A stretch of DNA of 64,000 nt from Microthyrium microscopicum (taxonomy: Eukaryota): contig MU004230.1 in assembly GCA_010405405.1 (NCBI GenBank), positions 2,824,627 through 2,888,626 of the forward strand, written 5' to 3'. The position numbers and the translations under genes are program-made. The notes under the pieces were generated by a model. That model was not told where the DNA came from. It searched no databases and saw nothing but the letters and a program-made list of their open reading frames with translations. Shown piece by piece: positions 20,996 to 36,995 of the stretch (position 1 is the first letter of the stretch; each line of letters starts with the position of its first letter).

Positions 20996-23849
20996 ATGTC
21001 TTCATCTGAGGATGACATTCCTCTACGGAAGACCAACGGAGGTAAGAATTACTCTCATGTGGCCAGGAATGAGCTTTCCTATTCCAGTGAGAAGTGACTG
21101 GAAGGCCTTTTATCTCGAGTCTTGGACTCGATAAAATCTGTCTCAGCTTCTCCATCTCCTTTCCTCTTCATCTTCACAAACCACAACCTTCAGCATGGCA
21201 AATTCTAACAAACATGCAGTCAAATCAGCCGCAATCGTCTCCAGTCGCGATAAAGCCATGGACGAACACACATCCGGTGGTCTTCAGCCTGGAATTTCTA
21301 TCCAAAACGGGCCTGTAGATTCGCCACAGAATGGGCGCTCCACTAACGGCGAGAGCAACGGTCGGCGCAAATCTCGAACAAGCCTCACACAGAAGAAGAC
21401 TTATAAGGAAATGACAAGTTCTGATGAGGATGATGAACCACTGAGCAAACGTCGGAAGACTGCAGTTGAAGAAGACTCTTCTGATGACGACGTCCCTTTG
21501 GCTAAAAAGGCTCTTAAGAAACTACCCAAGCCTTCAGCATCTCAGATTGGCGAAAAAGATACCAAAGTGCCCATCAAAAAGCGGTTGATTGAGCAGAAAG
21601 CTCAGATTGAAAAGAAGGCTGAAGTGACCGCCAAAAAGATACGGGCTGAAGACTCCAAGGCCACCAAGAAGCGGAAAGTCAAAGACGAGAGCGATAGTGA
21701 TGACGATCGTCCACTGGCCAAATCAGCCAAAACTAAGAAGACCGCGAACGGGACCAAATCGACAGTCAGCAAGACCAAAGTCAAAGCTGAAGCCAGCCCT
21801 GTCAAGAAAGGTAAAGGCAAGGCAGTCTCAACTGATGATGATGCCGACGAAGAAGAAGAGAACCGTTGGTGGGAGAACATGAACAACGACACTTCCGTCA
21901 AGTGGAAAACATTGGAACACAACGGTGTCCTACTGGCTCCGGAATATGTGCCCCTTCCTCGCGATGTCAAGCTGATCTACAAAGAAGAACCAGTTACTCT
22001 GGATGTGCAGGCTGAAGAGGTCGCCGGCTTTTACGGTGCCATGTTGAACTCGACGGTCAACGTTTCCAATGCCACCTTCAACAAGAATTTCTTCTCGGAC
22101 TTCAAGAAAATTGTGAGCAAAACCGGGCATGCCAAGAACTCCAAAGGAGAGGTTGTTAAGATTGAGCATTTCAAGGATTGCGACTTCACCAAGATCTTCG
22201 AATACTACGACGCTGAACGTGAACGAAAGAAGGCTATACCATCTGCTGACAAGAAGGCAATCAAAGCCAAAAAAGATGAAATCGAACAACCTTACATGTT
22301 TTGTAAGTGGAATGGTATCAAGGAAAAGGTGGGCAACTTCCGTGTTGAACCTCCTGGTCTCTTCAGAGGTCGCGGCGAGCACCCAAAGACTGGTCATGTG
22401 AAGACTCGAGTCAAGCCAGAGCAGATCACCATCAACATCGGCAAAGGCGCTAAAGTTCCACCTCCTCCTCCGGGTCACAAATGGAAAGAGGTCAAGCATG
22501 ACGATACTGCTACGTGGCTTGCAATGTGGCAAGAAAACATCAACGGAAACCACAAGTATGTCATGCTCGCAGCCAATTCCGCTATCAAGGGCCAGAGCGA
22601 CTACAAAAAATTCGAAAAAGCTCGAGAGCTGAAGAAGCACATTGATCGGATTCGCAAGGATTACACGAAAGACTTGAAAGTGGAGTCAATGGCTGACCGT
22701 CAACGTGCTACTGCTATCTATCTTATCGACAAACTGGCTCTCCGTGCCGGCAACGAAAAAGGCGATGATGAGGCAGAGACCGTAGGTTGTTGCTCGTTAA
22801 AGTTTGAACATGTCACCCTTCGACTACCAAAGACTCTCGTGTTTGATTTCTTGGGTAAAGACAGCATTCGCTTTCACCAAGAAGTTGAGGTTGACCCACA
22901 GGTCTTTAAGAACATGAAAATCTTCAAGAAGGCACCCAAAACAAAAGGCGACGATATCTTCGACCGTCTGAACACTGCGGGTTTGAACAAACATCTTGCT
23001 ACTTACATGACTGGTCTCACTGCCAAAGTTTTCCGTACTTACAATGCTTCCTGGACCATGGCGACCCTCCTCAAGGAAATGAAGCCCACTGGCACGGTTC
23101 CTGAACGAGTGAAGGAGTACAATGATGCGAATCGCACCGTGGCCATCCTTTGCAACCACAAGCGTACTGTCGGCGCTGCTCACGATACTCAAATGACGAA
23201 AATGCTGGAGAAGATCAAAGGTCTACGATATGAGCAATGGCGCACTCGCATGATGATGCTGAACCTTGAACCCAAGCTCAAGAAGTCACGCGGTGCAGAG
23301 TACTTTGAACGTCCTGAGGATCTGGACGATGAATGGGTTGAGCAGCACCAAGCCGCCGAGGTCGAAGAGAAGCGTCAGAAGATCCAGAAGAAGTTCGAGA
23401 ACGACAACAAGAAGCGTGAAGAGAATGGCGAGAAGCCATTGCCCGAGAAGGAGCTCAAAGAGCGACTTGAAGACGCCGATGAGCTTGCAAAGAAGTACCG
23501 AAAGGAGAACAAGTCCAAAAAGGTCGAGCCTGAAGGCAAGGGTCCTACCGTGGAGAAGCTCGAGGCTACGTACGACAAACTCGAGCAGCGCATTGAGAAC
23601 GCCAAACTGCAGGCTGACGACAAGGAGGAGAACAAGGAGGTCGCCCTCGGTACCTCCAAGATCGTGAGTTCGATCTTCCGTTTCGCAGTGAAATCTTGCT
23701 AATCATCCCTCCAGAATTATATTGATCCTCGTTTGACTGTCGTCTTCGTCAAGAAGTTCAATGTTCCTATTGAGCGCTTCTTCTCCAAGACTTTGCGTGA
23801 GAAGTTCGACTGGGCAATCAAGTCTGTTGATGAGGATTGGGAATTCTAG
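20996..23849 (+). CDS. TOP1: DNA topoisomerase I (type IB)
   Basis: [57 protein letters not shown] and VAILCNH. The catalytic GTSKI/NYIDPR motif spans intron 23664-23714. First intron at about 21042-21219. Confidence 0.98.
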
Positions 23850-24949
23850 ATCAGCTTTGGGATTTAAATTGACAGTTGGTCAACCTCTTTTTTGGGACGG
23901 CCGAGTATTCTCTATCATGGCTCATGGCTTTCCTTCCATGAGTTTCATACTGCATTGATGGTGGCATAGCGATTGATTGCATTTACACACAGATTCCCAA
24001 CAACATTAGTAGACATTATGTCTATCTACTTGTGGGCTTAGATGAAATGTCCCTCACAGGGATAGGTTTAGACATTATTTCCTCATGATTTAGTCTCAAT
24101 AAAAGTTGTGTTTTCATGTTTGTAGGATCCTGAAACCTGTCAGGCGATACATTGTCCGCCTATGTTAAGGTAGCGAAGATGCAATCTATTAGCACTCATA
24201 GATTGCTTTGTCCCCCAAGTTTATCTACATCTTCCTGGCAGCAATGGATATACCTACGAATCTTACACATCTAAATTGCAAATTCTTGTGCTACTGAGTG
24301 ATGAGCAAGGTTCATCGTTCTCTCTACTCTGCCAATTGACCGAAATGGTACCGCTGGCTGGGACGGCGGCGTACCTTGAACCCAAGCGTTTCAATGCATG
24401 CAACGAGCCGAATGACAGGCGCCTCCCACGTCAGTTTTGAAACATCTAGATGCTGTGTTTGGAGATCTCTCGATGGTTCGTTCATGAAATCTGATAGTTT
24501 TATAGCTACTAGTTTAGCTAGCTTACCATATTTTCAATGTTGATTTTGCGGGGAATTCTATCTCTTCCTGGAGGAAAGCAATTCATTTGTAAACGAACAG
24601 CAAAAACCAAATATCCTCAGGGGCAAAATACTAGTAGTAATATGGCGGGCGGCACGACGGAATACGGCCTCTTCCGTTCCTAACGGCCTGTCCTTGAGCA
24701 TACTTCGACAAGGAAGCAATTCCGGGACTCTGCATACACTCATATAAGCGCCAGTTAGTTTGCAGCAATATCTCATCTTTAATTGACAAGGAATAGATAC
24801 TCGCAGGGTTGGCGCATTGAAATATAAGAATGGGAAAAGGGGGAACTGTAGCTTTCGACCCATATCTAGGGATGCACTTTTGGTAGGGTAGTAGGACAGA
24901 TCTACCGTTACATCGATTTTAGCCAATCAACGTCCACCACCCAACAGCC

Positions 24950-27460
24950 AAAAATACTATTATTTAAAGCGCAGATTTTATTGCTTTTACCTATGTTGTG
25001 ATAGGAATATTAGTATTGAATTAAATATAGGCAAATAGGCAAACATCTACTACAATTCCATTTGCGATTCTTGCGTCTCTCGCTATGACACCGTCACGTA
25101 ATCTAGGACGTCCTCTAGCGCCTATTAAGTGTCTTAAATAGGATCTTTAACTATAACTATATCTTCATTAACGTCTTTAGCGATTATAATATTTGAGGCA
25201 AACCGTTTAAAGAATAGATTATCTAGTTCGTCTTCTTCTACCGCATCTAGGGTATACTACGTTCTTAGCTTAAATAGCATTCCTATATAGTAGACGCATA
25301 GTAAAGTAGAGCCTAGTTTATTGAGCTTTAGCCCGTTTATAAAGCTAAAAATAAGCTTGTTGCAATGATCTTACGAGAGGTTAGTCCTTTAAGGATTCTA
25401 CACCCAATTGACTACTAAAAATGCTCTTTCTAATGGCACAGAGTTGGCGGTTGTTTCAAATAACCTAATAGCGATCTTTGTAAGCTCTGGCGCTACAAAA
25501 CGAACTAATTCCCAGAAGTTTAGTAGTTCTTTATGCTTCTAAGGACTACTAGCGCCGTTAGATGTTAAGAAGTAGCTCTATTAATTCCTAAACGCGCAGA
25601 ATTAGATCACAACGCCAGAGAAGAGCTTTTTAGCTTCCTTCTTTACCTTATCTAAAGCTAAAGATAAAGCGGCGAGTCTAGATTTAATAGCAGCAATAGC
25701 AGCGTTAAAGTATTTGAGGGAGAGATCTTTACTAATGATGTTTAGATCCAACGCGTATGCTAGATAGTTATCATTAGTAACCTATTGTTTTAAACGTGCG
25801 TCAAGATATTAAATAAGAGAGGCCTAAATCTACTCTACCCCCTTTATCTTAGGGTATAATCTAGCGATTTTAGACTACTCCGCTTTAATCACCATTTAGC
25901 CTTTAATTATACGACCTAAATAATATTATAGAGACTCTAAAGCTTTCTAAGCAATGTAAATAGGCTCCAAGATATAAGAGAAGAATCGAACCTTAGCCCA
26001 GAATTTAGGGCTCTTCATTCAATTAAAAATAATGCTATTTAAAGCCCTAGCAGCCACCGTAGATCCTAGAACTCTAATAGTTTGAGCAAAGGTCTCTAGA
26101 GCTAATTAGCTACGTAGAACAGAAGTAACAAGGCCAAATTATATTCCCTAGCGTGTAATAATTGATAAACTGAAGGCGTATGATCTTTTGAGCTTTTAGC
26201 GTTGAATAGTGCGAAGTTGAGCGAAGTAGAGGTCCCTAGTCTTGAACTAAACAGCAAGCTCTTGGATATCTAATAGAATAGCTTCTAGAGCAGGGATTTT
26301 GGTTAGAATATCCTTTATTAGAAGCTAAAGACCGTAAGAGTCACATAGGATAAAAGAGTAGTGTTTAAGGATTCCATCGTTATACTTTTTGAGCAATTCT
26401 ATAGTAGAACACATAACTACGCACGTGTTAAAGCTAATGGAGTTGACGCGGGTAAGATCTCCTATAGTCCAACAAATAAGCCATTCTACTATGAGATTAG
26501 CTAGAAATACTGCATTGGCGTTAGCTCCTTTAAGATTGATATTCTCCAAGAAGAAGGCACCTAAACTAGGAATTACGACGCTAAAGTTGGCAATGCAGCG
26601 ACCTGCTTGATCTAAGCTCTCGTCTATGCAGAAGTTAAGGTAAGGTTACTGATTAAGTAGTAATTCAAGCTTTAGAAGATCTTGCTAATAAACCTATTCT
26701 ACAAGGGGAAACATTTGCGTTCTTCCTAGTGCTAAGTAGTAAGGAATACCTGCTAAACTAGCTAAGATTCTTTTATTATTCTAGGTAGTAGGGTGTAAGT
26801 ATTAATTAAATATATTTAGTGGTAGGCCCTCTTGAACGACTCGCTTTGCACAACGCAGGTCCTATTCTAGGCCACGATTTATGTACAGAATTGGCGTAGA
26901 TGTTGGATTTGGCTGGGACACGCGTTGGACAGGTTGAATTCAACCTTTAGCGATACTGTAGGCTTCTATTCGACCTAAGTGCTTAGAGTAGGATTTGGAG
27001 CAGTATTTACAATGGTAACGAGTAGGAAGAGAATCACTAATACGTACCTAATTAAATAGGATAGCTTAACGTCAATGCTATGATCTAGGAAGAAATTAAG
27101 GCATTTTTAGTAAAGAAACGGTATAGTAACAGTTGGCAAAAGATAGATATTCTAGAGGTAGACCGCCATAGCAAATAGTAAGCGAATTGTAAATTTTTAT
27201 TCACTAGACTAAAGAGCAAGAAAAGAGGAACAAGCTAATATAATTTTCATATATTTATTAGCTTTTTTGGTTATATTGGTAGAGATTAAAAACTATCATA
27301 TTTATTAATAGTTGATGTTAGTTGTGGTGGTTAATAATATAAGGAGCTAAGTGCCAGCTACTAAGTAACAGATCAACGCTAATAGTTCCAAAGCTGAATA
27401 TTCTATAGAATATTACCCTTTTAGGCTTAGTGCTGCTAGCGTATTGTTAAAACACTAATT
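24950..27460 (-). mobile_element. RIP-inactivated hAT-superfamily DNA transposon (BED finger, DUF659/RNase H-like domain, dimerisation domain); ends approximate
   Basis: AT/TpA-rich island. The minus-strand reading from ATG 27104 gives MP*FLPRS*H*R*..RYHCKYCSKSYSKH (BED-like), LNFCIDESLDQAGRCIANF, CDSYGL*LLIKDILT, ITR*G (TRWG) and ANSVPLERAF (hATC). Stops fall where CAA/CAG/TGG are expected. Confidence 0.85.
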
Positions 27461-28316
27461 AGATGCAGTCCTACCAAAAGGTAGAGAGTAGTACACCGTA
27501 ATTATCGAGTAGGACTAATGCAAATGTCATACCTCCAAAAGGGCGTCTTACGTGCATCCCTACCCATATCGCGATCTTCGCTTGAAATGAGGCTAGGATA
27601 TGGACAGGCGAGAGCGGGCAATATCTTGACATTGTGAAACTGCTTGATTGCTCTTCAAGGATGTATTTACCAAGCTTTGTAAGATTCTTCTGGTCTTCGA
27701 CATTCTTTCTCGAAAAAGATGGTGGAGATGTTGTAGCACTTTCCCATGGGCCATACAGTATGTAGCGTAATATCTCCATCCATGTAGTTGTCTCCGATCC
27801 CCTGCATGTACGCCTCAACTCCCCTTCTCTCTACCTCCTCTAGTCACGCTACCATTATCACCAAAATAGCACAGTTTCAGGCTCTCCTAGATCTCTAGAG
27901 CTACATAAACTAAATGACTAGTCAACATCCCGCCCTTTACCGTAGGAACCACTCTTTCTATCTACCTTAGCCGCCGTACAAGCAGAATCCTGGGATCCAA
28001 TGCTCGGCAACTAGACTAGCTTGCGTTAATCGGTCGGTAAAAAGAAAGGCGTGCGGTGACTTCTCTGTCTTGGAGGCCTTTGTTTGAGTTGATCTTGCAT
28101 TCTGCTTTTTTAACGTTGTGCCTGCTTCTTGCTCTTGACTTCTTCTGTCCTTCCTGATTTATTGCCCGGTGACTGCTTTGATTGCTGCATCGTGTTTCAG
28201 CTTTTTTATTACCTTCCCTCTGCGAGTTTCGCTCCGCCATATCTTGGAAGATATTGTATCCAGCTTTGCTATAAGATAGCGCTGCGGTCTCGCTTCTCCT
28301 ATATCATATCGCTGCA

Positions 28317-29691
28317 ATGGGCGACACAAAGCCAAAACCTACCGCGGACAGTAAACCTGCAGTATTGATCATAGGCGGCCTTGGTAAGATCATCTTCTAC
28401 TTCCCAAAATCGCCCAGTAATTGCGATCAGAGCTAATCCTCTTCCTCAGGCTATGTCGGTCGCTTTCTCGCACTTCACATCCACAAGAACAACTTGGCCT
28501 CTGAACTCCGTCTAGTCGACAAACAACTCCCCGAACTAGCATGGCTCGCCCCCGAATTCGCAGAAGCCTGCTCCCGCGAAAACTACGTCCAAGCAGACGC
28601 AAGTAGAGAACGTATGTGCTCCCCATCACCACTCTGACCCCTCAAATCCACCAGATTCCCAAACTAACTTGATCCCAGAACATCTTCCCCGCATATTCGA
28701 CCGCGCCAACAACCAACAATTCGACTACATCTTCAACTGCGGCGGCGAAACCCGCTACAGCCAAGAAGATGAAGTCTACCGCGCGCGCTCCCACGCCCTC
28801 AGCCTTGCTCTCGGCGGTGAAGCAGCGCGTCGAAAAATCCGCGCCTTTATTGAAGTTTCTACTGGCATGGTGTACAAATCCGACTCGAATCCACGGTCTG
28901 AGACTGCGAAGTTGAAACCATGGAGTCGGTTGGCAAAGTGGAAGTTGCAGGCGGAGGAAGATTTGGCGAAGATGGATGGGCTAAACTTGGCGGTGGCGAG
29001 ATTAGCGCATGTATACGGGCCTTATACGAGCAAGTTTTTGGCGACGGCGCTGTGTTTGGCAAGAGTGTACCAGAGCGAGGAGAGGGAGATGAAGTGGCTG
29101 TGGACGAGAGAATTGCGGACGAATACGGTGCATGTGGAGGACGTGGCGGAGGCGATGTGGGCTTTTGCGGAGTGGTATGTGCGGACGCCGGAGGGGAAGA
29201 GGGAGAAGGTGCCGGTGTTTAATGTGGTGGATCAGGGAAATACTTGTGAGTTCGTTGTAGGTAGGACTAATGGGTGAGTGCTAACGGAGTGCGTAGCGCA
29301 AGGGACCATTGCGAGTATCATACATGATATCTTCGGCATAGCGACGACATTTCAAGGGACGCTGATATCGCAGTTTGCCAAACTACATCTCGATTCTGTG
29401 GTGGACGATCTTAATGATGAGGTACTGGATCCTTGGGCGGAATTGCAGCAGCAGGCGGGAACGAAACAGAATACGCCGTTAAGTCCATTCACAGAGAAAG
29501 AGTTATTGAAAGATACGGATCTGAGTATGGATGGGAGTGCTTTCATGAAGGAGCTTGGGTTTCAGTATGTAGAGTTCCCCATCCTGAAAACTCAGACTAA
29601 CGTTTCCTACAGATACAAGCATCCAAAACTCACAAAGGAAGAAGTCGAAGCTGTAATAGAAAGCTACAAGAAGATGAACTGGTGGCCATGA
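28317..29691 (+). CDS. NAD-dependent epimerase/dehydratase family (extended/atypical SDR)
   Basis: VLIIGGLG/YVGRFLA Rossmann motif across intron 28384-28450, FDYIFNCGGETRY, RLAHVYGPY, TVHVEDVA and C-terminal SYKKMNWWP. Further introns at about 28612-28678 and 29246-29296, and probably near 29566-29612. Confidence 0.85.
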
Positions 29692-30093
29692 AACTCAGAA
29701 ATCAACAATATATAACCAAAATTTCAGCATGTCTCCTCAGACACAGCGTGTCTGCGTGTGTATACATTTACATTCACATACTAAGCATTATATAGGCAAC
29801 GGGTTTTCGAATATGTCATTATTAATGATAGTTTAACCAGACATAGATATCAAAATATAATCCATTTAGCGATACAAAGACTGTAGAAATATCCAGCTAT
29901 CTGACGACCAACGAATCCCTAATCGACCATATATGGACAGCAGCAATGGTCTGAATGACAAACGATTCATCCACTTGCTCGGCCGTGTCCGATCTCTGAT
30001 CACCTCAATCCTAAATCCTGTCAGTCAGTCCCCTATGTGATATCGTGCACAGCAGCCTCACTCAGTAACCTCCCATCCCTAGCACCATTTCTT

Positions 30094-30387
30094 CTACTTC
30101 AGATGATATCCATGACTATCAAACCAGTCATTGGTACACGTGAGGCACGAAACCTGAACTTTACCCGTTCCACCACACTTTCTACAAGCAGCCTCTTGGA
30201 CAAAAGTCCAGCTGCTTCCCTGGCACCGTGTACACGAAGACTGTGCGTTGCCAGCGCATCCAAGTGGGCAAGGAATATAGTGTGCAGCTATTTTGCCTCT
30301 GCCGAAGCATTTATCGCATTCTGCGAGTCTGTATTCTTTGCCCTGACAATACTCGCAGTTTGGATTCCATTGATCTGATCGCGTCAT
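30094..30387 (-). CDS. Stand-alone DnaJ-type (CxxCxGxG) zinc-finger microprotein, 97 aa
   Basis: Six Cys pairs: CEYCQG, CDKCFGRG, CPLGC, CTRCQG, CRKCGGTG, CLTC. Start context is aatATG. No J-domain or signal peptide. Confidence 0.7.
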   Translation of the reverse strand: MTRSDQWNPNCEYCQGKEYRLAECDKCFGRGKIAAHYIPCPLGCAGNAQSSCTRCQGSSWTFVQEAACRKCGGTGKVQVSCLTCTNDWFDSHGYHLK

Positions 30388-31024
30388 ATTGTGTTTAGAG
30401 TGTGTGATTTGGGGTAGCTGGGCTGAGCTATGGGGGGATTAGTTGGTATGAAGATCAATGGATTAAGGGATGCTAACAGACTGACTGATTGGTATAGTTT
30501 GAGGCGGTGCTGAGATCTGATGAAGGCTGGACTTGCTTCAGATAATAGAAACGGGCGGTATCAAGGTTGACATAGGCTGGCTTTAGAATGCCCAGATATA
30601 TACTGCTTGGCTTTCCTGGGATTGGAATCTCGCAGAAATGCTGGCAGGACATGCCTTTTTTGGTCCTCCCCGCTCAGCCTGATGGACTCTACAGTTGGCT
30701 ACCCAATGAAATGGCTAAGACCTGGCTTCGTACCCACGATATAATTCATGGAAGTGATTTAGACCTTCTGAAAATATAGTTCCTACTCGTCGTTAGTTAA
30801 ACAGGCTCAGAGCCTGCAGTCAAGAATCCAAGGCCCAAAACGCCATCTTTGGATCATCACGCGACGTGCATATCGTGGCGTTTGAGCAACCACCAACACC
30901 CTCTTATCTAAGTATTTACCCCCCTCATTCAGCCGAAAAGACACCTCTGACCAGCGTGATGATGAACCACAGGGTGAACACCATTATCAGATCCGCGACC
31001 CGGTATTCTAAATCAGAATAAATT

Positions 31025-33667
31025 ATGGTCGAATTAGCAACCTCACACAATGCCCCGTTGCGACGAAGACGCTCGTCTTTAAGCGATGGCAACGATGGAC
31101 TCACCAGCCCGTCGAAACGACGGCGCGCTCTCGATGGTGACGGGGATGGAATCGTTGCCAAATCTCACTGCCCCGACTCGCAAGTCGGTAGAATCGATGC
31201 TTCTGAAGAGCAAGGAGGATCTAAGGGGCCTGAGGACTTCGACGATTCCATTGAATCAAGAATGTCTCTGGCAAGAGATATACTCCAAGCCTACTTCGAC
31301 TTTGACGACTTCAAATCCGAGCAGGAAAGTAAGAGATTCCCGTGCCAAATCGCATTTCTTAACGACCTCCGATCAAACCGAAACAACCATACCTCTCATC
31401 CCTTTAATGACTACATTAGAATGCGATGGGAGTTGATTCCACCACAAAAAGACCAATTGGTCTTTCCGGCGTGTTAGCTCCAATCATCATCTTGTACTAA
31501 AGAATTCTAGGTGTGATCAAAACACTTCTCTCCGGCGAGAACAGCCTTGCCATCCTGCCTACTAATGCCGGAAAGTCGCTATGTTATCAGCTACCTGCAC
31601 TGTGCTTCGAGGAACTCGACAAGAAATATGGAGGCAACAAAGAGGGCAAACACGGCATAACGCTGGTGATTAGTCCGCTGATATCCCTGATGTCTGACCA
31701 GGTCGCCCGCGCTCCAGAAGAAGAATATCGCCGCAGACGCGATCAACACTTCCAAGTCGGCCGGCGAGGTGAGGACTATATTAAAATCTCTTGCCGAAGG
31801 GAAGCTGAAAATATTGTTCTGTGCCCCTGAGAAGTTCATGAGTAAGCCCTTTGTGCAAGCTATATCGGCAGTTCCTGGCGGCGTTCGCCTGTTGGCTGTT
31901 GATGAGGCGCATTGTATCTCAGAGGTAGCCTACTTTAGGATTTTTGGTTTAGTGTGATACTGATAGACTCGTGTAGTGGGGATACAGCTTTCGCCCGGAA
32001 TACTTACGAGTCTCTCAATTTAGCAGAGGTATCAAAGCCCAACAGGTAGTCTGCCTGACCGCTACAGGTACGCCTAGTCCTTTTTAAGATCTAGCCATGA
32101 CTGATTTCAACCATTGAAAAGCCACAGAACAAGTCGCCGAAGATATCGCCACATCGTTCAACATCAAGCCAGCCGGTATATTCAAGCAAAGCCTCTATCG
32201 GCCCAAGTAAGCTCTTCATCTACTCGGAATTATGTTTTGCTGACCTTGAAGCTTAATATTGGATGCGAAAGCTACTACCAATGATTACACCAAACTTGGG
32301 CACGTAGAAAATTTCCTAAGAACTCATCCCGGTCAGACTGTCATTTTCGTCCAGTTCAAGTCGGTGCGTACTCTCTAAAACTTGCCAGTCGGTTCGGGAG
32401 ACACCGTAGTTGATGGGAGGGCGCCATTTATTTTGTCGATGATTGACTTGCATGTCGCAAATGCTAATAGCAACCAGACGACAGTTGATCTACCAAGAGA
32501 GATCCGAAGTCGGCTTGGTGACTTTGTAGCAACAGAAGGCTACAGCGGCGGCTTAAATATGAAGAAAAGAAAGGAAGTAGAAGAGCGATTCATGAACGGG
32601 GAAATCAGAGTGGTGAGTACATTGTCATGTTTTCATGAGTGCACTAACCTGGTAGCTCGTCGCAACTCTCGCTTATGGCATGGGAATCGACAAAAAGGAC
32701 ATCAGGAACGTGATTCATTACAACGCTGCGCGCAATCTCGAGGAATATAGCCAGCAAATTGGCAGGGCTGGTAGAGACGGCCTTCCCAGTAAGTGCTTGC
32801 TGCTCTATGATGATCGGGACATCGCAACGCACAAAGTAAGGCTCTCCAGAAACCTCAGGGCAGCGAAGACCTAACCTTAGAATTATCAGAAATATGCAAC
32901 AACTGCTATACCCGCGCAAGGAGTGATTGAAATCTGCCTAAAGCACTTCTTTAACGGCGCCAATCAACCAGAGATCGGGGTAGGCGACACCTTCGAGGTC
33001 GACCACGCTAAAGTCATGAAAGCGTGTCGCTTGGATGATGAAATTGTTCAGATAATTTATGCCATCTGCGAAAAGAAGTTCCGTAAGTGCTCATATGTTC
33101 GAGATTCACGTCTATACGCTGACCTCAAGCTTTAAAGAGCTCTTCGAATTGCGCTCAAAGCAAGAAAGGGAAGTTCGACTCCGTCTTCCTATGACGCGCG
33201 GTGCATCAACGCTTAATGACTTGAAGAAATATGCCCAGTCTGACACGTCCGCTACTGGAAAAGCACTCAATTTTGTCATAAGCCAGTCTCAAGGACCTAC
33301 CATCCCCATCCACATCATCGATTTAGCCACAAAGTCTGGTCTTGAGCACGATGCCCTAGTAGCCAAAGTTATCGACTACTTCCACGAAGGGCTCATTGCG
33401 TGGCCGGAGTTTGAGGTTGTCTATACCGTCAAGCTACTGCAGCCCGCTCCGACAGCTGTCGAGCAGCTGAAGCTTAGTAGACAGCTGTTCGATGATCTTG
33501 ATAGAAATGGGCCGCTTTCGAGGGAGCGAATCAAAAAGCTCGATGCACTTTTTCAAGGGCATGAGTGCTTTGCTGCGGCGTTAACGCGATACTTTGGGAT
33601 GGGTTTGCCAAACGGGCTGACTCAGTGCGATCAGTGTACTTGGTGTACAACTCGTAAGGCATTGTAA
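31025..33667 (+). pseudogene. RecQ-family DNA helicase (short form, no HRDC domain) with an apparent 1-nt frameshift
   Basis: [85 protein letters not shown] and RQC Zn ligands (CFAAALTRYFG..CDQCTWC). About 9 introns. An extra C in the run at 31706-31708 breaks the frame with no intron available. Confidence 0.78.
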
Positions 33668-34152
33668 GTCCGATGACTTCTTTCAGTGATGACTCCCACG
33701 ATTGGAAAGCCCTGTTCCGACATGATCACCTTGGCTTAACAACATTCACAACCTTGGTCAAATTGGGCGACCTAAGAAGCATATCAAGCATATCTACCTA
33801 CCTAAGCCTGGAAGAGGAAGTCTTGTCAGGTTTACCCATGTAGGCACAATGTGAGTGTCATGTGCAATCGCAAAGCGCAGTGTATGTTCGACATCGCACT
33901 CCATGGGAGGAGTCTAATTATTGGTCTACCTCAGAGATGTTTCAGATCAGGCACAACATCCAGCTCTGCATTAGTGGTGGTAAATACTACTGGAAGAGAA
34001 ATACATAACATGTTGAACATTTGTTTGTGACATCCACATTGTCACGCGCTGGACAAGTGCGATGCGAAACTGAATTGTCAGCCTTATACGCACATTGACA
34101 GCTTAAGCAGACAGAATCCTAGACCATGGATCATGCTGGGCCTCAATAGGGA

Positions 34153-34425
34153 TCATTTTCTGGAAGATCCCACTGGCTTTTCCGGGCGACAGCATTCAAA
34201 ACGCCAGGCTCCTGAGCCATTACATTCCCGACACTTGATCCACTTGTGTACCTTTTTGGCGCCATGGCATATTCGGCATTTTTGGATGTTCATACATCCC
34301 GAACATTTACAGAAATCGACTCCCCATCCACCCATACCATCACATCCCCCACAGCCATTTGGGTGCTCAACAAACCCTCGGTCCGAGCACCTGTGTTCGG
34401 GACAGCGACGGCGCTTGTTTGGCAT
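34153..34425 (-). CDS. Second stand-alone DnaJ-type zinc-finger microprotein, 90 aa
   Basis: 13 Cys including CGGCDGMG, CKCSGC, CRICHG and CRECNGSG. Start context is aacATG, with TATATAAATAA on the minus strand about 140 bp upstream (34565-34578). Confidence 0.65.
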   Translation of the reverse strand: MPNKRRRCPEHRCSDRGFVEHPNGCGGCDGMGGWGVDFCKCSGCMNIQKCRICHGAKKVHKWIKCRECNGSGAWRFECCRPEKPVGSSRK

Positions 34426-35390
34426 GTTATTGCGAGATGAAGACTTTTAGACTAAAGTTAGCGTTGAAGGAATTGGTCGCAGTGACTGACAAAGAAGCGC
34501 GAACTGAATTGTGATGATGCAAGTAGCAAGAGCTTAGTTCCAGGATTTATAATGGCTATTCGCCTTATTTATATATAGTAGTCTTCATGGTCAATAGCTC
34601 ACATCTCTTCGTTCGCTTTACAGTATTAGACGTGTGATATGAAATCCTCAAATGAAGAGACAGTGTTAACACACTAGCGCAAATAGCAACACAAGAAGTA
34701 TGGCAAAACAATCGATATGGTGTTGAATTCTCACTGAACACGCCAGGGTGAGAAGTGCCAGCTCCATACTGAGTCCCAACCTGACACGAATATGACTGAG
34801 ACAAGCTCGGTAAAGTATACTTCCGATGAAGTCAAAAATATCGCAAGTTCATCACGCTCGATGGCTACCACCACATGTGATTGGAATTGAGTGCTATGAA
34901 GCCCATCGAATGCGCCGGGTGTTTGACGGTTTCTATTTAACAGATATCAAATGGTCTTCTTGATCGTGTTGGCTCTGTTTTCGATCTACTGGTGGTTGTA
35001 AAGGGGGGAAGAGTCGAGATGAAGCATTTTAGACCTGTTGAATACGATTGATTTAATGCACTGCAAATCAAAAAAAAAGTATTTGGCGATGATTGGCATT
35101 AACCGTCAAGGCCCAGGAGGCGATCAGCAGGTGAATGGACGACCACTGAAGCACCGAAAAAGGAGGTAGGTAGAGCAACTACGGAAGCGCATTGCGGCCT
35201 ACCCAGCAACATCAAAGAAAACCAAAAACCAAAAAACTATCACGCTGTAGACCTATACAAAAAGCACTCTTATGCCCTCGTTTTATGACTTTTGTTATAT
35301 ATTTATATATTGTTAGAAAGCATAAAATAAGGGCAATCTTTTGGCTTCCTTAAAAATTAAATTGAAGCATTGTGGGTTATCATACTTAAC

Positions 35391-35435
35391 AATGATTGAG
35401 CCATAAAATAGAAATCATTTTTTGGCTCAATCATT
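35391..35435. repeat. 19-bp inverted repeat (hairpin) in an AT-rich intergenic island
   Basis: AATGATTGAGCCATAAAAT (35391-35409) pairs with ATTTTTTGGCTCAATCATT (35417-35435), with one mismatch and a 7-nt loop. Confidence 0.8.
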
Positions 35436-35974
35436 ATTGACAAGTGAAAGTAAGAAAGATTATTCCCGCTAAGTTAGTGGAGCACCCACTAAACTAGTGA
35501 CTCCACCACTAAATCCTTGCCACGTTCCTATCTTAGCGACTACCTTACTAATTTAGCGACGTTCTCGCTAAACCATCAACCCGTAAAGAATAGAATTTTA
35601 ATTTCATTGGTTCAGAAGAAAGCTCTTAATTTACGCTTTATAAAGCTATCTCAAGATATTCTTGAAACCATCAAATGGGGGTGCAAAACGCCCATGAAGT
35701 GCCAAAATATGCATTTTTGGATGTTGGAATTTGGGGATTCTCTGATGTTGCCGGGTAGGCCGCAATGCGCTTCCGTAAGCAACCCCTGACTCCTGAGTTT
35801 TTAACAACAACTTAATCGATGGTCAGGTGACCCGAGGTTCTTTCGAATGATCTAGATATAATTCCGGAAGGTACAACTTTTGATCATCTAACTTGCCACT
35901 TCTTAATCACCACCTGCGTACCTCTTATCGCCTAGCTCTTTCAATACTACGATATTCCAACAATTCAAGAAAAT

Positions 35975-36995
35975 ATGGCGGATACCTCACCTCCCGTCGC
36001 GGTCTTCAAAAAGCGCACCACCAAAAACCTCCGGAAACGTCCCGCAACTCCACCACCCGCCTCCTCCTCCGACGAAGAATACTCATCCACCGACGAAGCC
36101 GGCCATCGCATAAAACGGCGTCGACGCGCAGGCGTTGCTGCTGGCTCCACCACCCACAAAGCTGGCAAAGACTCGAGTGACTTGCTCAGCACGACGAAAT
36201 ATGCGGCTGACCGATCGACGTTGATCGCAGACTCGAACGATGCTACCAAACAGAGTAATTGGTACGACGAACATGCGCCAGATGCACTCAGCGCAAAATC
36301 TTTGCTGGGCACAACAAGAGCAAAGCCAGCGGTGCCGGATCAGGAGAGAGATGGCGCGTATCATGGGCAGGCGGGGTATACGAATTTTATAGCGAAGAAT
36401 CCGAATAAACAGGACAAGGGGATGGGACCTGTGAAGGCGCCGACGAATTTGAGGGCGATTACGATTACGGATTATAGTCCGGATGTGTGTAAAGATGTAG
36501 GTTACCCTAGTTCCAAGAATTCAAGTATACTGCTAACATATGTCGCAGTATAAGCAGACGGGTTTCTGTGGATTTGGCGATAATTGCAAATATTTACACA
36601 CGCGAGAAGTCTACAAGCAGGGCTGGGCACTAGACAAGGAGTGGGAGATTCAGACGAGAGGCAAGAAGCTCAAGGGTACGGTGGTAGCGTCGGCGAACCG
36701 CAGTGCGATTGATGAAGAGGAGGAGAAGGATGCTGAGCTGTTGGAGAAGATTCCGTTTGCGTGCATTATCTGCAAGGGGCCATACAAGAATCCGGTGGTG
36801 ACGAAGTGTGGGCATTACTACTGTGAGAGTTGTGCGTTGCAGAAATATCAGAAGAATCCGAGTTGTGTGGCTTGTGGAGCTGGCACGAATGGAGTTTTCA
36901 ATACTGCGAGGAATTTGAACAAGCTTTTGGAAAGGAAGAAGAAACGGGAGGAGAGACTGAAGGAATTAGAGCAGGAGGATGAAGATGAAGAATGA
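35975..36995 (+). CDS. CWC24: Pre-mRNA splicing factor Cwc24 (CCCH + RING)
   Basis: GPVKAPTNLRAITITDYSPDVCKD/YKQTGFCGFGDNCKYLHTRE across an intron at about 36497-36549. RING domain IPFACIICKGPYKNPVVTKCGHYYCESCA..CVAC. Confidence 0.95.

Follow-up and report, generated by a model that had tools for sequence, protein, structure and literature searches.

What do two short, cysteine-rich open reading frames (ORFs) encode when they stand one on either side of the same RecQ-family helicase gene in a filamentous fungus, and do they have anything to do with that helicase? The locus lies in a 64,000-nt stretch of contig MU004230.1 of the leaf-litter fungus Microthyrium microscopicum, hereafter called the window, to whose first letter all coordinates refer; the window, with its short spliceosomal introns, is fungal nuclear DNA. 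As the first-pass annotation of this DNA had stated, two minus-strand ORFs encoding 97 aa (ORF1, 30094-30387) and 90 aa (ORF2, 34153-34425) flank the plus-strand RecQ gene (31025-33667). Their coordinates and strands also agree with the orientations that it described, ORF1 being divergent from RecQ, with 637 nt from ATG to ATG, and ORF2 convergent with it, with stop codons 485 nt apart. The explanation that we favor, at a probability of roughly 0.55, is that ORF1 and ORF2 are lineage-restricted, unannotated genes for soluble ~10 kDa proteins consisting almost wholly of DnaJ-type cysteine-rich (CR-type) zinc knuckles and having no J-domain. Taken separately, ORF1 is probably a genuine microprotein gene of this type, and for ORF2 the chances of the same are about even.

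The cysteine pattern is the most distinctive property of both frames. ORF1 contains 12 Cys residues arranged in six pairs (CEYCQG, CDKCFGRG, CPLGCAG, CTRCQG, CRKCGGTG and CLTC), two of which are exact CxxCxGxG motifs, two CxxCxG, one CxxxCxG and one CxxC. The 13 Cys residues of ORF2 form the series CPEHRC, CGGCDGMG, CKCSGC, CRICHG, CRECNGSG and CC, with two exact motifs and one CxxCxG in addition to CxxxxC, CxCxxC and CC. The DnaJ central domain is marked by four or more cysteine pairs of the CxxCxGxG type in a row, and both ORFs show such a series. Six-frame translation of the 64 kb yielded exactly four exact C..C.G.G motifs, all of them in ORF1 and ORF2, two apiece. By comparison, 100 first-order Markov resamples of the window contained a mean of 0.38 and a maximum of 2 such motifs; none of the 100 reached four, and none placed two motifs in one stop-free segment. 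The motif content is far above chance, and it is this content that is significant, whereas ORF length by itself would be non-significant.

ORF1 and ORF2 have a six-pair layout with similar spacing in common, which makes it plausible that their sequences descend from an old duplication. The first-pass annotation had noticed no obvious identity beyond the motifs, and quantitative comparison upheld this impression. BLASTP between the two proteins gave an E-value of 0.044, and the score of their global alignment (z = 2.0 relative to residue shuffles) was reached by 43 of 1000 shuffles, rising to 885 of 1000 when Cys and Gly were held fixed. A duplication test at the nucleotide level detected no DNA likeness between the two loci.

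Several kinds of comparison point to the CR domain of DnaJ as the nearest known relative of both proteins. ORF1 matched the Pfam family PF00684 (DnaJ_CXXCXGXG) with an E-value of 4e-4 and 21.0 bits. Among solved structures, the top matches were weak, namely the CR domain of DnaJA3 for ORF1 (2ctt_A, E = 0.0088) and DnaJ for ORF2 (6jzb_A, E = 0.075). A profile built from ORF1, ORF2 and P0004, a metagenomic protein described below, matched four chains in the solved structures at E ≤ 0.1, all of them from DnaJ or Ydj1 (6jzb, 1.6e-5; 1exk, 3.3e-4; 1nlt, 0.01; 2ctt, 0.027). The same profile confirmed 14 of 126 pattern-matched viral stretches, and all 14 loci turned out to encode full-length giant-virus DnaJ proteins of ~370 aa with the HPD motif, whose CR domains align to residues 23-75 of ORF1 (11-75 in locus L094) at 32-37% identity. 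Searches against PHROGs, PADLOC and NCBIfam returned sub-threshold knuckle matches only, the best being those of ORF1 to phrog_9961 (E = 3.3e-4) and TIGR02642 (E = 0.0024). In a language-model look-up, the nearest clusters were stand-alone anti-TRAP/DnaJ-central-domain proteins, with scores of 0.88 for ORF1 and 0.86 for ORF2, values below 0.9 being leads only. The Pfam scan of ORF1 and ORF2 contained no J-domain family, and the HPD motif is absent from both sequences. Both proteins are hydrophilic and basic (pI 8.3 and 9.3; maximum Kyte-Doolittle 15-residue means of 0.75 and 0.51 for ORF1 and ORF2, respectively), with neither a signal peptide nor a membrane segment, and ORF2 has a KRRR sequence near its N-terminus. 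Judged by sequence, the two proteins appear to bear a weak resemblance to CR-type zinc knuckles, yet miss the curated threshold of the family. The motifs, together with these weak sequence and profile matches, bear out the original description of both as J-domain-less zinc-finger proteins of the DnaJ type.

The canonical DnaJ CR domain comprises four motifs and two zinc sites. ORF1 and ORF2 resemble the CR domains of DnaJ and Ydj1 (PF00684; 1EXK, 2CTT, 6JZB, 1NLT) in their serial CxxCxGxG knuckles, and it is there that their best structure matches lie; they differ in having six cysteine pairs rather than four motifs and, compared with class A J-domain proteins, in lacking the J-domain, the G/F region and the C-terminal client-binding domains. 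Free-standing J-domain-less DnaJ-like zinc-finger proteins are represented by BSD2, PSA2 and ORANGE in plants and algae and by anti-TRAP in Bacillus. The likeness to these proteins consists in the small size, in a chain that is nearly all CR-type knuckle and in the missing J-domain, in line with the look-up lead of 0.86-0.88. However, neither ORF matched the anti-TRAP families (PF15777, NF058604) significantly (ORF1, E = 0.82 in Pfam and 0.16 in NCBIfam; ORF2, nothing), and the host here is a fungus, which has no plastid. Among the titles listed in literature searches, none concerned a fungal stand-alone DnaJ-type zinc-finger protein, although one may have been published all the same.

If the two frames are translated, the six cysteine pairs of each protein could bind up to three zinc ions, and each chain would then form a small, rigid, zinc-stapled hairpin. 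Such a hairpin may have a protein-binding role as a holdase, an adaptor or an inhibitor, as BSD2 and anti-TRAP do, and would exert it without recruiting Hsp70 itself.

Transcription of the locus was assessed with the sequencing run X5, which had been labelled RNA by guess and which we take to be spliced RNA because ten of its joints, located at gene-model positions, have GT..AG or CT..AC ends. One X5 contig of 3523 nt (record 9) spans 29800-31924, and two of its joints, 30009>30061 and 30427>30478, read CT..AC on the plus strand and hence represent minus-strand introns. The stretch between them, 30062-30427, is the middle exon of a transcript spliced on the minus strand, and this exon contains the whole of ORF1. 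The 50-nt intron preceding this exon (30428-30477, minus strand, GT..AG) lies 40 nt ahead of the ORF1 ATG, within the 5′ untranslated part, and the 51-nt intron following it (30011-30061, minus strand, GTGAGG..TTTAG) begins 32 nt past the ORF1 stop codon. ORF1 is the longest frame of its exon, its ATG is the first in-frame ATG past an in-frame stop in the spliced RNA, and the upstream exon of the transcript has no long frame other than a possible one of 72 codons, discussed below. Both ORF1 and ORF2 have an A at position −3 before the ATG. The earlier characterization of the ORFs as intronless holds for their coding parts, which are uninterrupted, but not for the ORF1 transcript, which has two introns in its untranslated parts. 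RNA is continuous in one contig over 30478-30911, so that the transcripts of ORF1 and RecQ meet or overlap head to head; on the RecQ side, a further joint of record 9 (30911>30973, GT..AG) marks a 61-nt plus-strand intron in the 5′ untranslated region (UTR) of RecQ (30912-30972).

ORF2 is covered by another X5 contig (record 10, 2547 nt), which starts in the RecQ exon beginning at ~32478, passes through three spliced RecQ introns, runs unjointed over 33138-34800 and continues for ~375 nt further to end at ~35175, at the edge of a repeat element. The expression check that had been proposed for both ORFs thus succeeded for ORF1, which lies in a spliced transcript of its own strand, and yielded for ORF2 coverage by an RNA contig that carries no strand marker. 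We also considered whether ORF1 and ORF2 might be exons of one minus-strand gene with RecQ nested between them, and rejected this because the ORF2 frame closes with a stop codon and the ORF1 exon is spliced to the exon at 30478 and beyond.

The exact sequences of ORF1 and ORF2 are absent from a collection of 15 billion proteins, and the published annotation is therefore without them, as the first-pass annotation had suspected for frames of this size. Relatives proved equally scarce, and this scarcity is the first of several points that weigh against the two frames being zinc-knuckle genes. A word-based homologue search returned no match for either ORF. A phmmer search of ORF1 against 1.84 billion representative proteins gave four matches at E ≤ 1e-3 and none at 1e-10, comprising one spurious coiled-coil repeat protein, two long many-knuckle proteins and P0004. 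The last of these is a 65-aa protein encoded on a 529-nt metagenome contig with no genomic context; its alignment with ORF1 shows 35% identity across 75 columns (E = 2e-11 pairwise and 6.7e-4 for the whole library), and the likeness runs into the non-cysteine C-terminal tail. P0004 is the sole hint of a wider family. Scans of viral contigs with ORF1, ORF2 and P0004, and of metagenome contigs with ORF1 and ORF2, produced pattern matches but no relative. So few homologues give no measure of conservation across species or of purifying selection.

Codon statistics add to these unfavorable points. The whole-codon log-likelihoods of −16.4 bits (ORF1) and −18.2 bits (ORF2) both fall under all 57 in-frame control windows and inside the off-frame range. 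The synonymous-codon scores were 1.3 and 1.9, as compared with 5.6 ± 6.1 for in-frame and −1.7 ± 6.5 for off-frame windows, in a test that has little power in this genome; the cysteine-rich composition and the weak codon bias here blunt such testing. The family assignment has its own weaknesses: the gathering threshold of PF00684, 32.7 bits, was reached by neither ORF, and ORF2 had no Pfam, NCBIfam or PADLOC match at E ≤ 1. Three members of the ORF2 series (CxxxxC, CxCxxC and CC) are degenerate, the common ground of ORF1 and ORF2 is limited to the Cys/Gly pattern, and single-sequence AlphaFold2 models of both were poor, with predicted local distance difference test (pLDDT) values of 38.2 for ORF1 and 41.6 for ORF2. 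With regard to expression, the X5 contigs carry no strand, level or transcript ends, and the RNA over ORF2, having no strand marker, could be RecQ read-through or background. Finally, a possible upstream frame of 72 codons (30473-30652, minus strand) lies in another phase than ORF1 and crosses the intron of the 5′ untranslated part; it would precede ORF1 only if transcription started beyond 30652.

The RecQ gene that the first-pass annotation had placed between the two ORFs is indeed present, but its reading frame is broken. The RNA-supported coding sequence, with nine coding exons and eight coding introns, is 2044 nt long (1 modulo 3), and the frame opened by its ATG stops at codon 208. The break is a matter of one base at 31700-31712 on the plus strand, at the junction DQVA / LQKK, immediately after the codons for ...SLMSDQVA. 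Upstream of it, the alignment of the ATG frame with E. coli RecQ extends as far as ...SLMSDQV; a second frame, from 31700 and including ...DEAHCISE, aligns gaplessly to residues 85-153 of the same protein. As a result, no single open frame runs through the helicase core. Deleting any single base in 31690-31719 restores one open frame of 680 codons; therefore, the defect consists of one extra base, the remainder of the gene being intact. The genome contigs (X2), the RNA contig (X5 record 9) and a contig of a third sample (X6 record 12) all have the same letters at the break site, and the long listed pieces of the three samples (149-2547 nt) are letter-identical to the window, so that the samples may derive from one strain. 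We consider it very likely that RecQ is transcribed and that its frameshift is fresh, and because a single extra base breaks a transcribed gene, it is probably a recent pseudogene.

The deposited protein model deals with the break in a different way. The last exon of RecQ is 100% identical to KAF2675034.1, 'ATP-dependent DNA helicase [Microthyrium microscopicum]' (P0005, 670 aa), and this model continues out of frame for 22 residues before it omits a 31-nt 'intron' in the region 31700-31798. The RNA contig (X5 record 9), in which the plus-strand RecQ intron 31329-31510 is joined, has no joint at the 31-nt 'intron', and the gene behind KAF2675034.1 would be better called a frameshifted pseudogene.

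As to the kind of helicase, P0005 passed the family cut-off of TIGR00614 recQ_fam (294.9 bits; cut-off, 219.8) and remained under the RecQ equivalog cut-off (319.8 versus 640.2 bits). The best solved structure for its core is E. coli RecQ (1oyw, E = 8.7e-61), and the likeness to this protein and to TIGR00614 resides in the helicase core, including the DEAH box and the GRAGRDG motif. Beyond the one-base shift, the gene differs from bacterial RecQ in having no Pfam match to RQC or HRDC and in a C-terminal part that matches no other protein: ~190 residues separate the helicase core from a region that weakly matches the RecQ zinc-binding family (E = 0.003), and the sole match of the last 175 residues is their own database entry. 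The two unusually long RecQ introns, intron 5 (114 nt) and intron 1 (182 nt), each carry a short dispersed repeat (32396-32440 and 31407-31511, respectively). Pieces of ~40-75 nt of these repeats match several differently flanked contigs in all three data sets (genome, RNA and third sample), and the summed depth in the bin with 32396-32440 is ~9 times baseline; the repeats match nothing in Rfam and do not recur elsewhere in the window.

The genes around the locus are unremarkable. The finding is flanked by an NAD-epimerase gene (28540-29691) on one side and a gene for a CCCH+RING protein (35975-36995) on the other. Other large frames in the window encode a beta-galactosidase, Med1, a GH28 hydrolase, Cdt1 and an Obg GTPase, and further genes encode topoisomerase I, ATP synthase gamma, a TBC RabGAP, an OPT transporter and a protein kinase. 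Med1, Cdt1, Obg, topoisomerase I, ATP synthase gamma, the kinase and the CCCH+RING protein make the surroundings ordinary housekeeping territory. The positions of ORF1 and ORF2 on both sides of RecQ most likely reflect neighborhood in a small species-specific island between housekeeping genes.

An AT-rich block at 25000-28000 (GC 0.36-0.39) contains no frame of at least 130 codons. The first-pass annotation had reported in this region a hAT element altered by repeat-induced point mutation, which we could not confirm: Pfam searches of 15 ORF fragments (24174-28368) and of six read-through frames (23800-28401) identified 0 families, neither a hAT nor any other transposase. Past ORF2, a 598-bp element resembling a miniature inverted-repeat transposable element (MITE) occupies 35180-35777, with 48-nt terminal inverted repeats that are 90% complementary, a central 22-nt palindrome and AGCAAC on both flanks. 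It is at the edge of this MITE-like element that the RNA contig over ORF2 ends. An Rfam search of 29500-36000 returned just two sub-threshold miRNA-like matches, both on the central palindrome of the element.

These observations allow the competing explanations to be weighed. The two frames may no longer be translated, or may never have been, and would in that case be relics, open to this day, of old CR-type genes in an island that is decaying, the RNA over them being UTR, read-through or non-coding. The decay of the adjoining RecQ gene fits such a history, as do codon statistics that fail to separate the ORFs from off-frame sequence, opposite-strand frames over ORF1 and ORF2 that are likewise open (91 and 105 codons), the degenerate motifs of ORF2 together with its RNA of no specified strand, and the shortage of orthologues with which to show constraint. 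Yet both frames are intact, with an ATG and the A at −3; the six cysteine pairs of ORF1 are all in place, the spliced transcript that carries ORF1 has no longer frame, and the non-cysteine C-terminal tail of ORF1 resembles that of P0004. On balance, we regard untranslated remains as unlikely, albeit deserving serious consideration. A transposon origin, in which the island is what is left of a helicase-carrying DNA transposon and the zinc-knuckle ORFs are its accessory genes, would account for the AT-rich relic at ~25-28 kb, for the inverted-repeat element at 35180-35777 and for the species-restricted nature of RecQ and both ORFs. RecQ, however, has normal GC, eight coding introns and one 5′-UTR intron; in the genome run, those pieces of other contigs that were listed (23 of 83) are short (~40-75 nt, at least 80% likeness) and lie in or at the end of the two long introns, a look-up with P0005 gave no look-alike among the stretches of this genome that it covered, the read-through frames of 23800-28401 contain no transposase family, and an ordinary epimerase gene stands between the relic and ORF1. 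We consider this origin very unlikely.

The first-pass annotation had proposed a working module, in which the zinc-knuckle proteins serve as partners, chaperones or redox helpers of an accessory RecQ. The arrangement itself speaks for it, because a protein type found nowhere else in the 64 kb lies directly on both sides of one gene; the head-to-head transcripts of ORF1 and RecQ suggest a divergent promoter region, and RecQ, ORF1 and ORF2 are all species-restricted, down to the last 175 residues of RecQ that match only their own entry. Against it, each of the three samples carries the broken RecQ frame, and adjacency is weak evidence in a compact fungal genome. Linkage was sought in the 88 RecQ loci nearest to this helicase among viral and prokaryotic genomes (8 IMG/VR viral, 80 prokaryotic), and none of them had a zinc-knuckle ORF within ±4 kb, defined as a segment with at least two CxxCxGxG motifs or with one plus at least three CxxC. 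Nor was any relative of ORF1 or ORF2 seen beside RecQ, the sole credible relative of ORF1 being on the context-free 529-nt contig, which leaves no homologue with usable genomic context. The proposed module found no support in these results, and we hold it to be highly improbable, although a tie may have existed in the past; a present-day functional tie to RecQ is unlikely because the helicase frame is broken, and for the same reason, the gene probably being a recent pseudogene, the microproteins would not now be working through RecQ. A more ambitious version makes the ORFs the founding members of a family of DnaJ-type knuckle proteins in fungi, free-standing and with three zinc ions each. They would have originated together with a bacterial-like RecQ peculiar to this species and would formerly have acted in its service, for instance as its holder or regulator, and they would have outlived the helicase, whose gene is newly broken. 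This scenario is a long shot; if true, these would be the first such proteins outside plastids, bacteria and viruses.

Reading ORF1 and ORF2 as lineage-restricted zinc-knuckle genes means that a fungal genome gains two genes that are likely real, in addition to a corrected model of a third. Caution is called for with the deposited 670-aa 'ATP-dependent DNA helicase' model, which masks a frameshift with an implausible 31-nt intron. J-domain-less zinc-knuckle proteins of the DnaJ type have been studied mainly in plastids and bacteria. The present locus suggests that they may exist in a filamentous fungus as well, with six cysteine pairs instead of four motifs.

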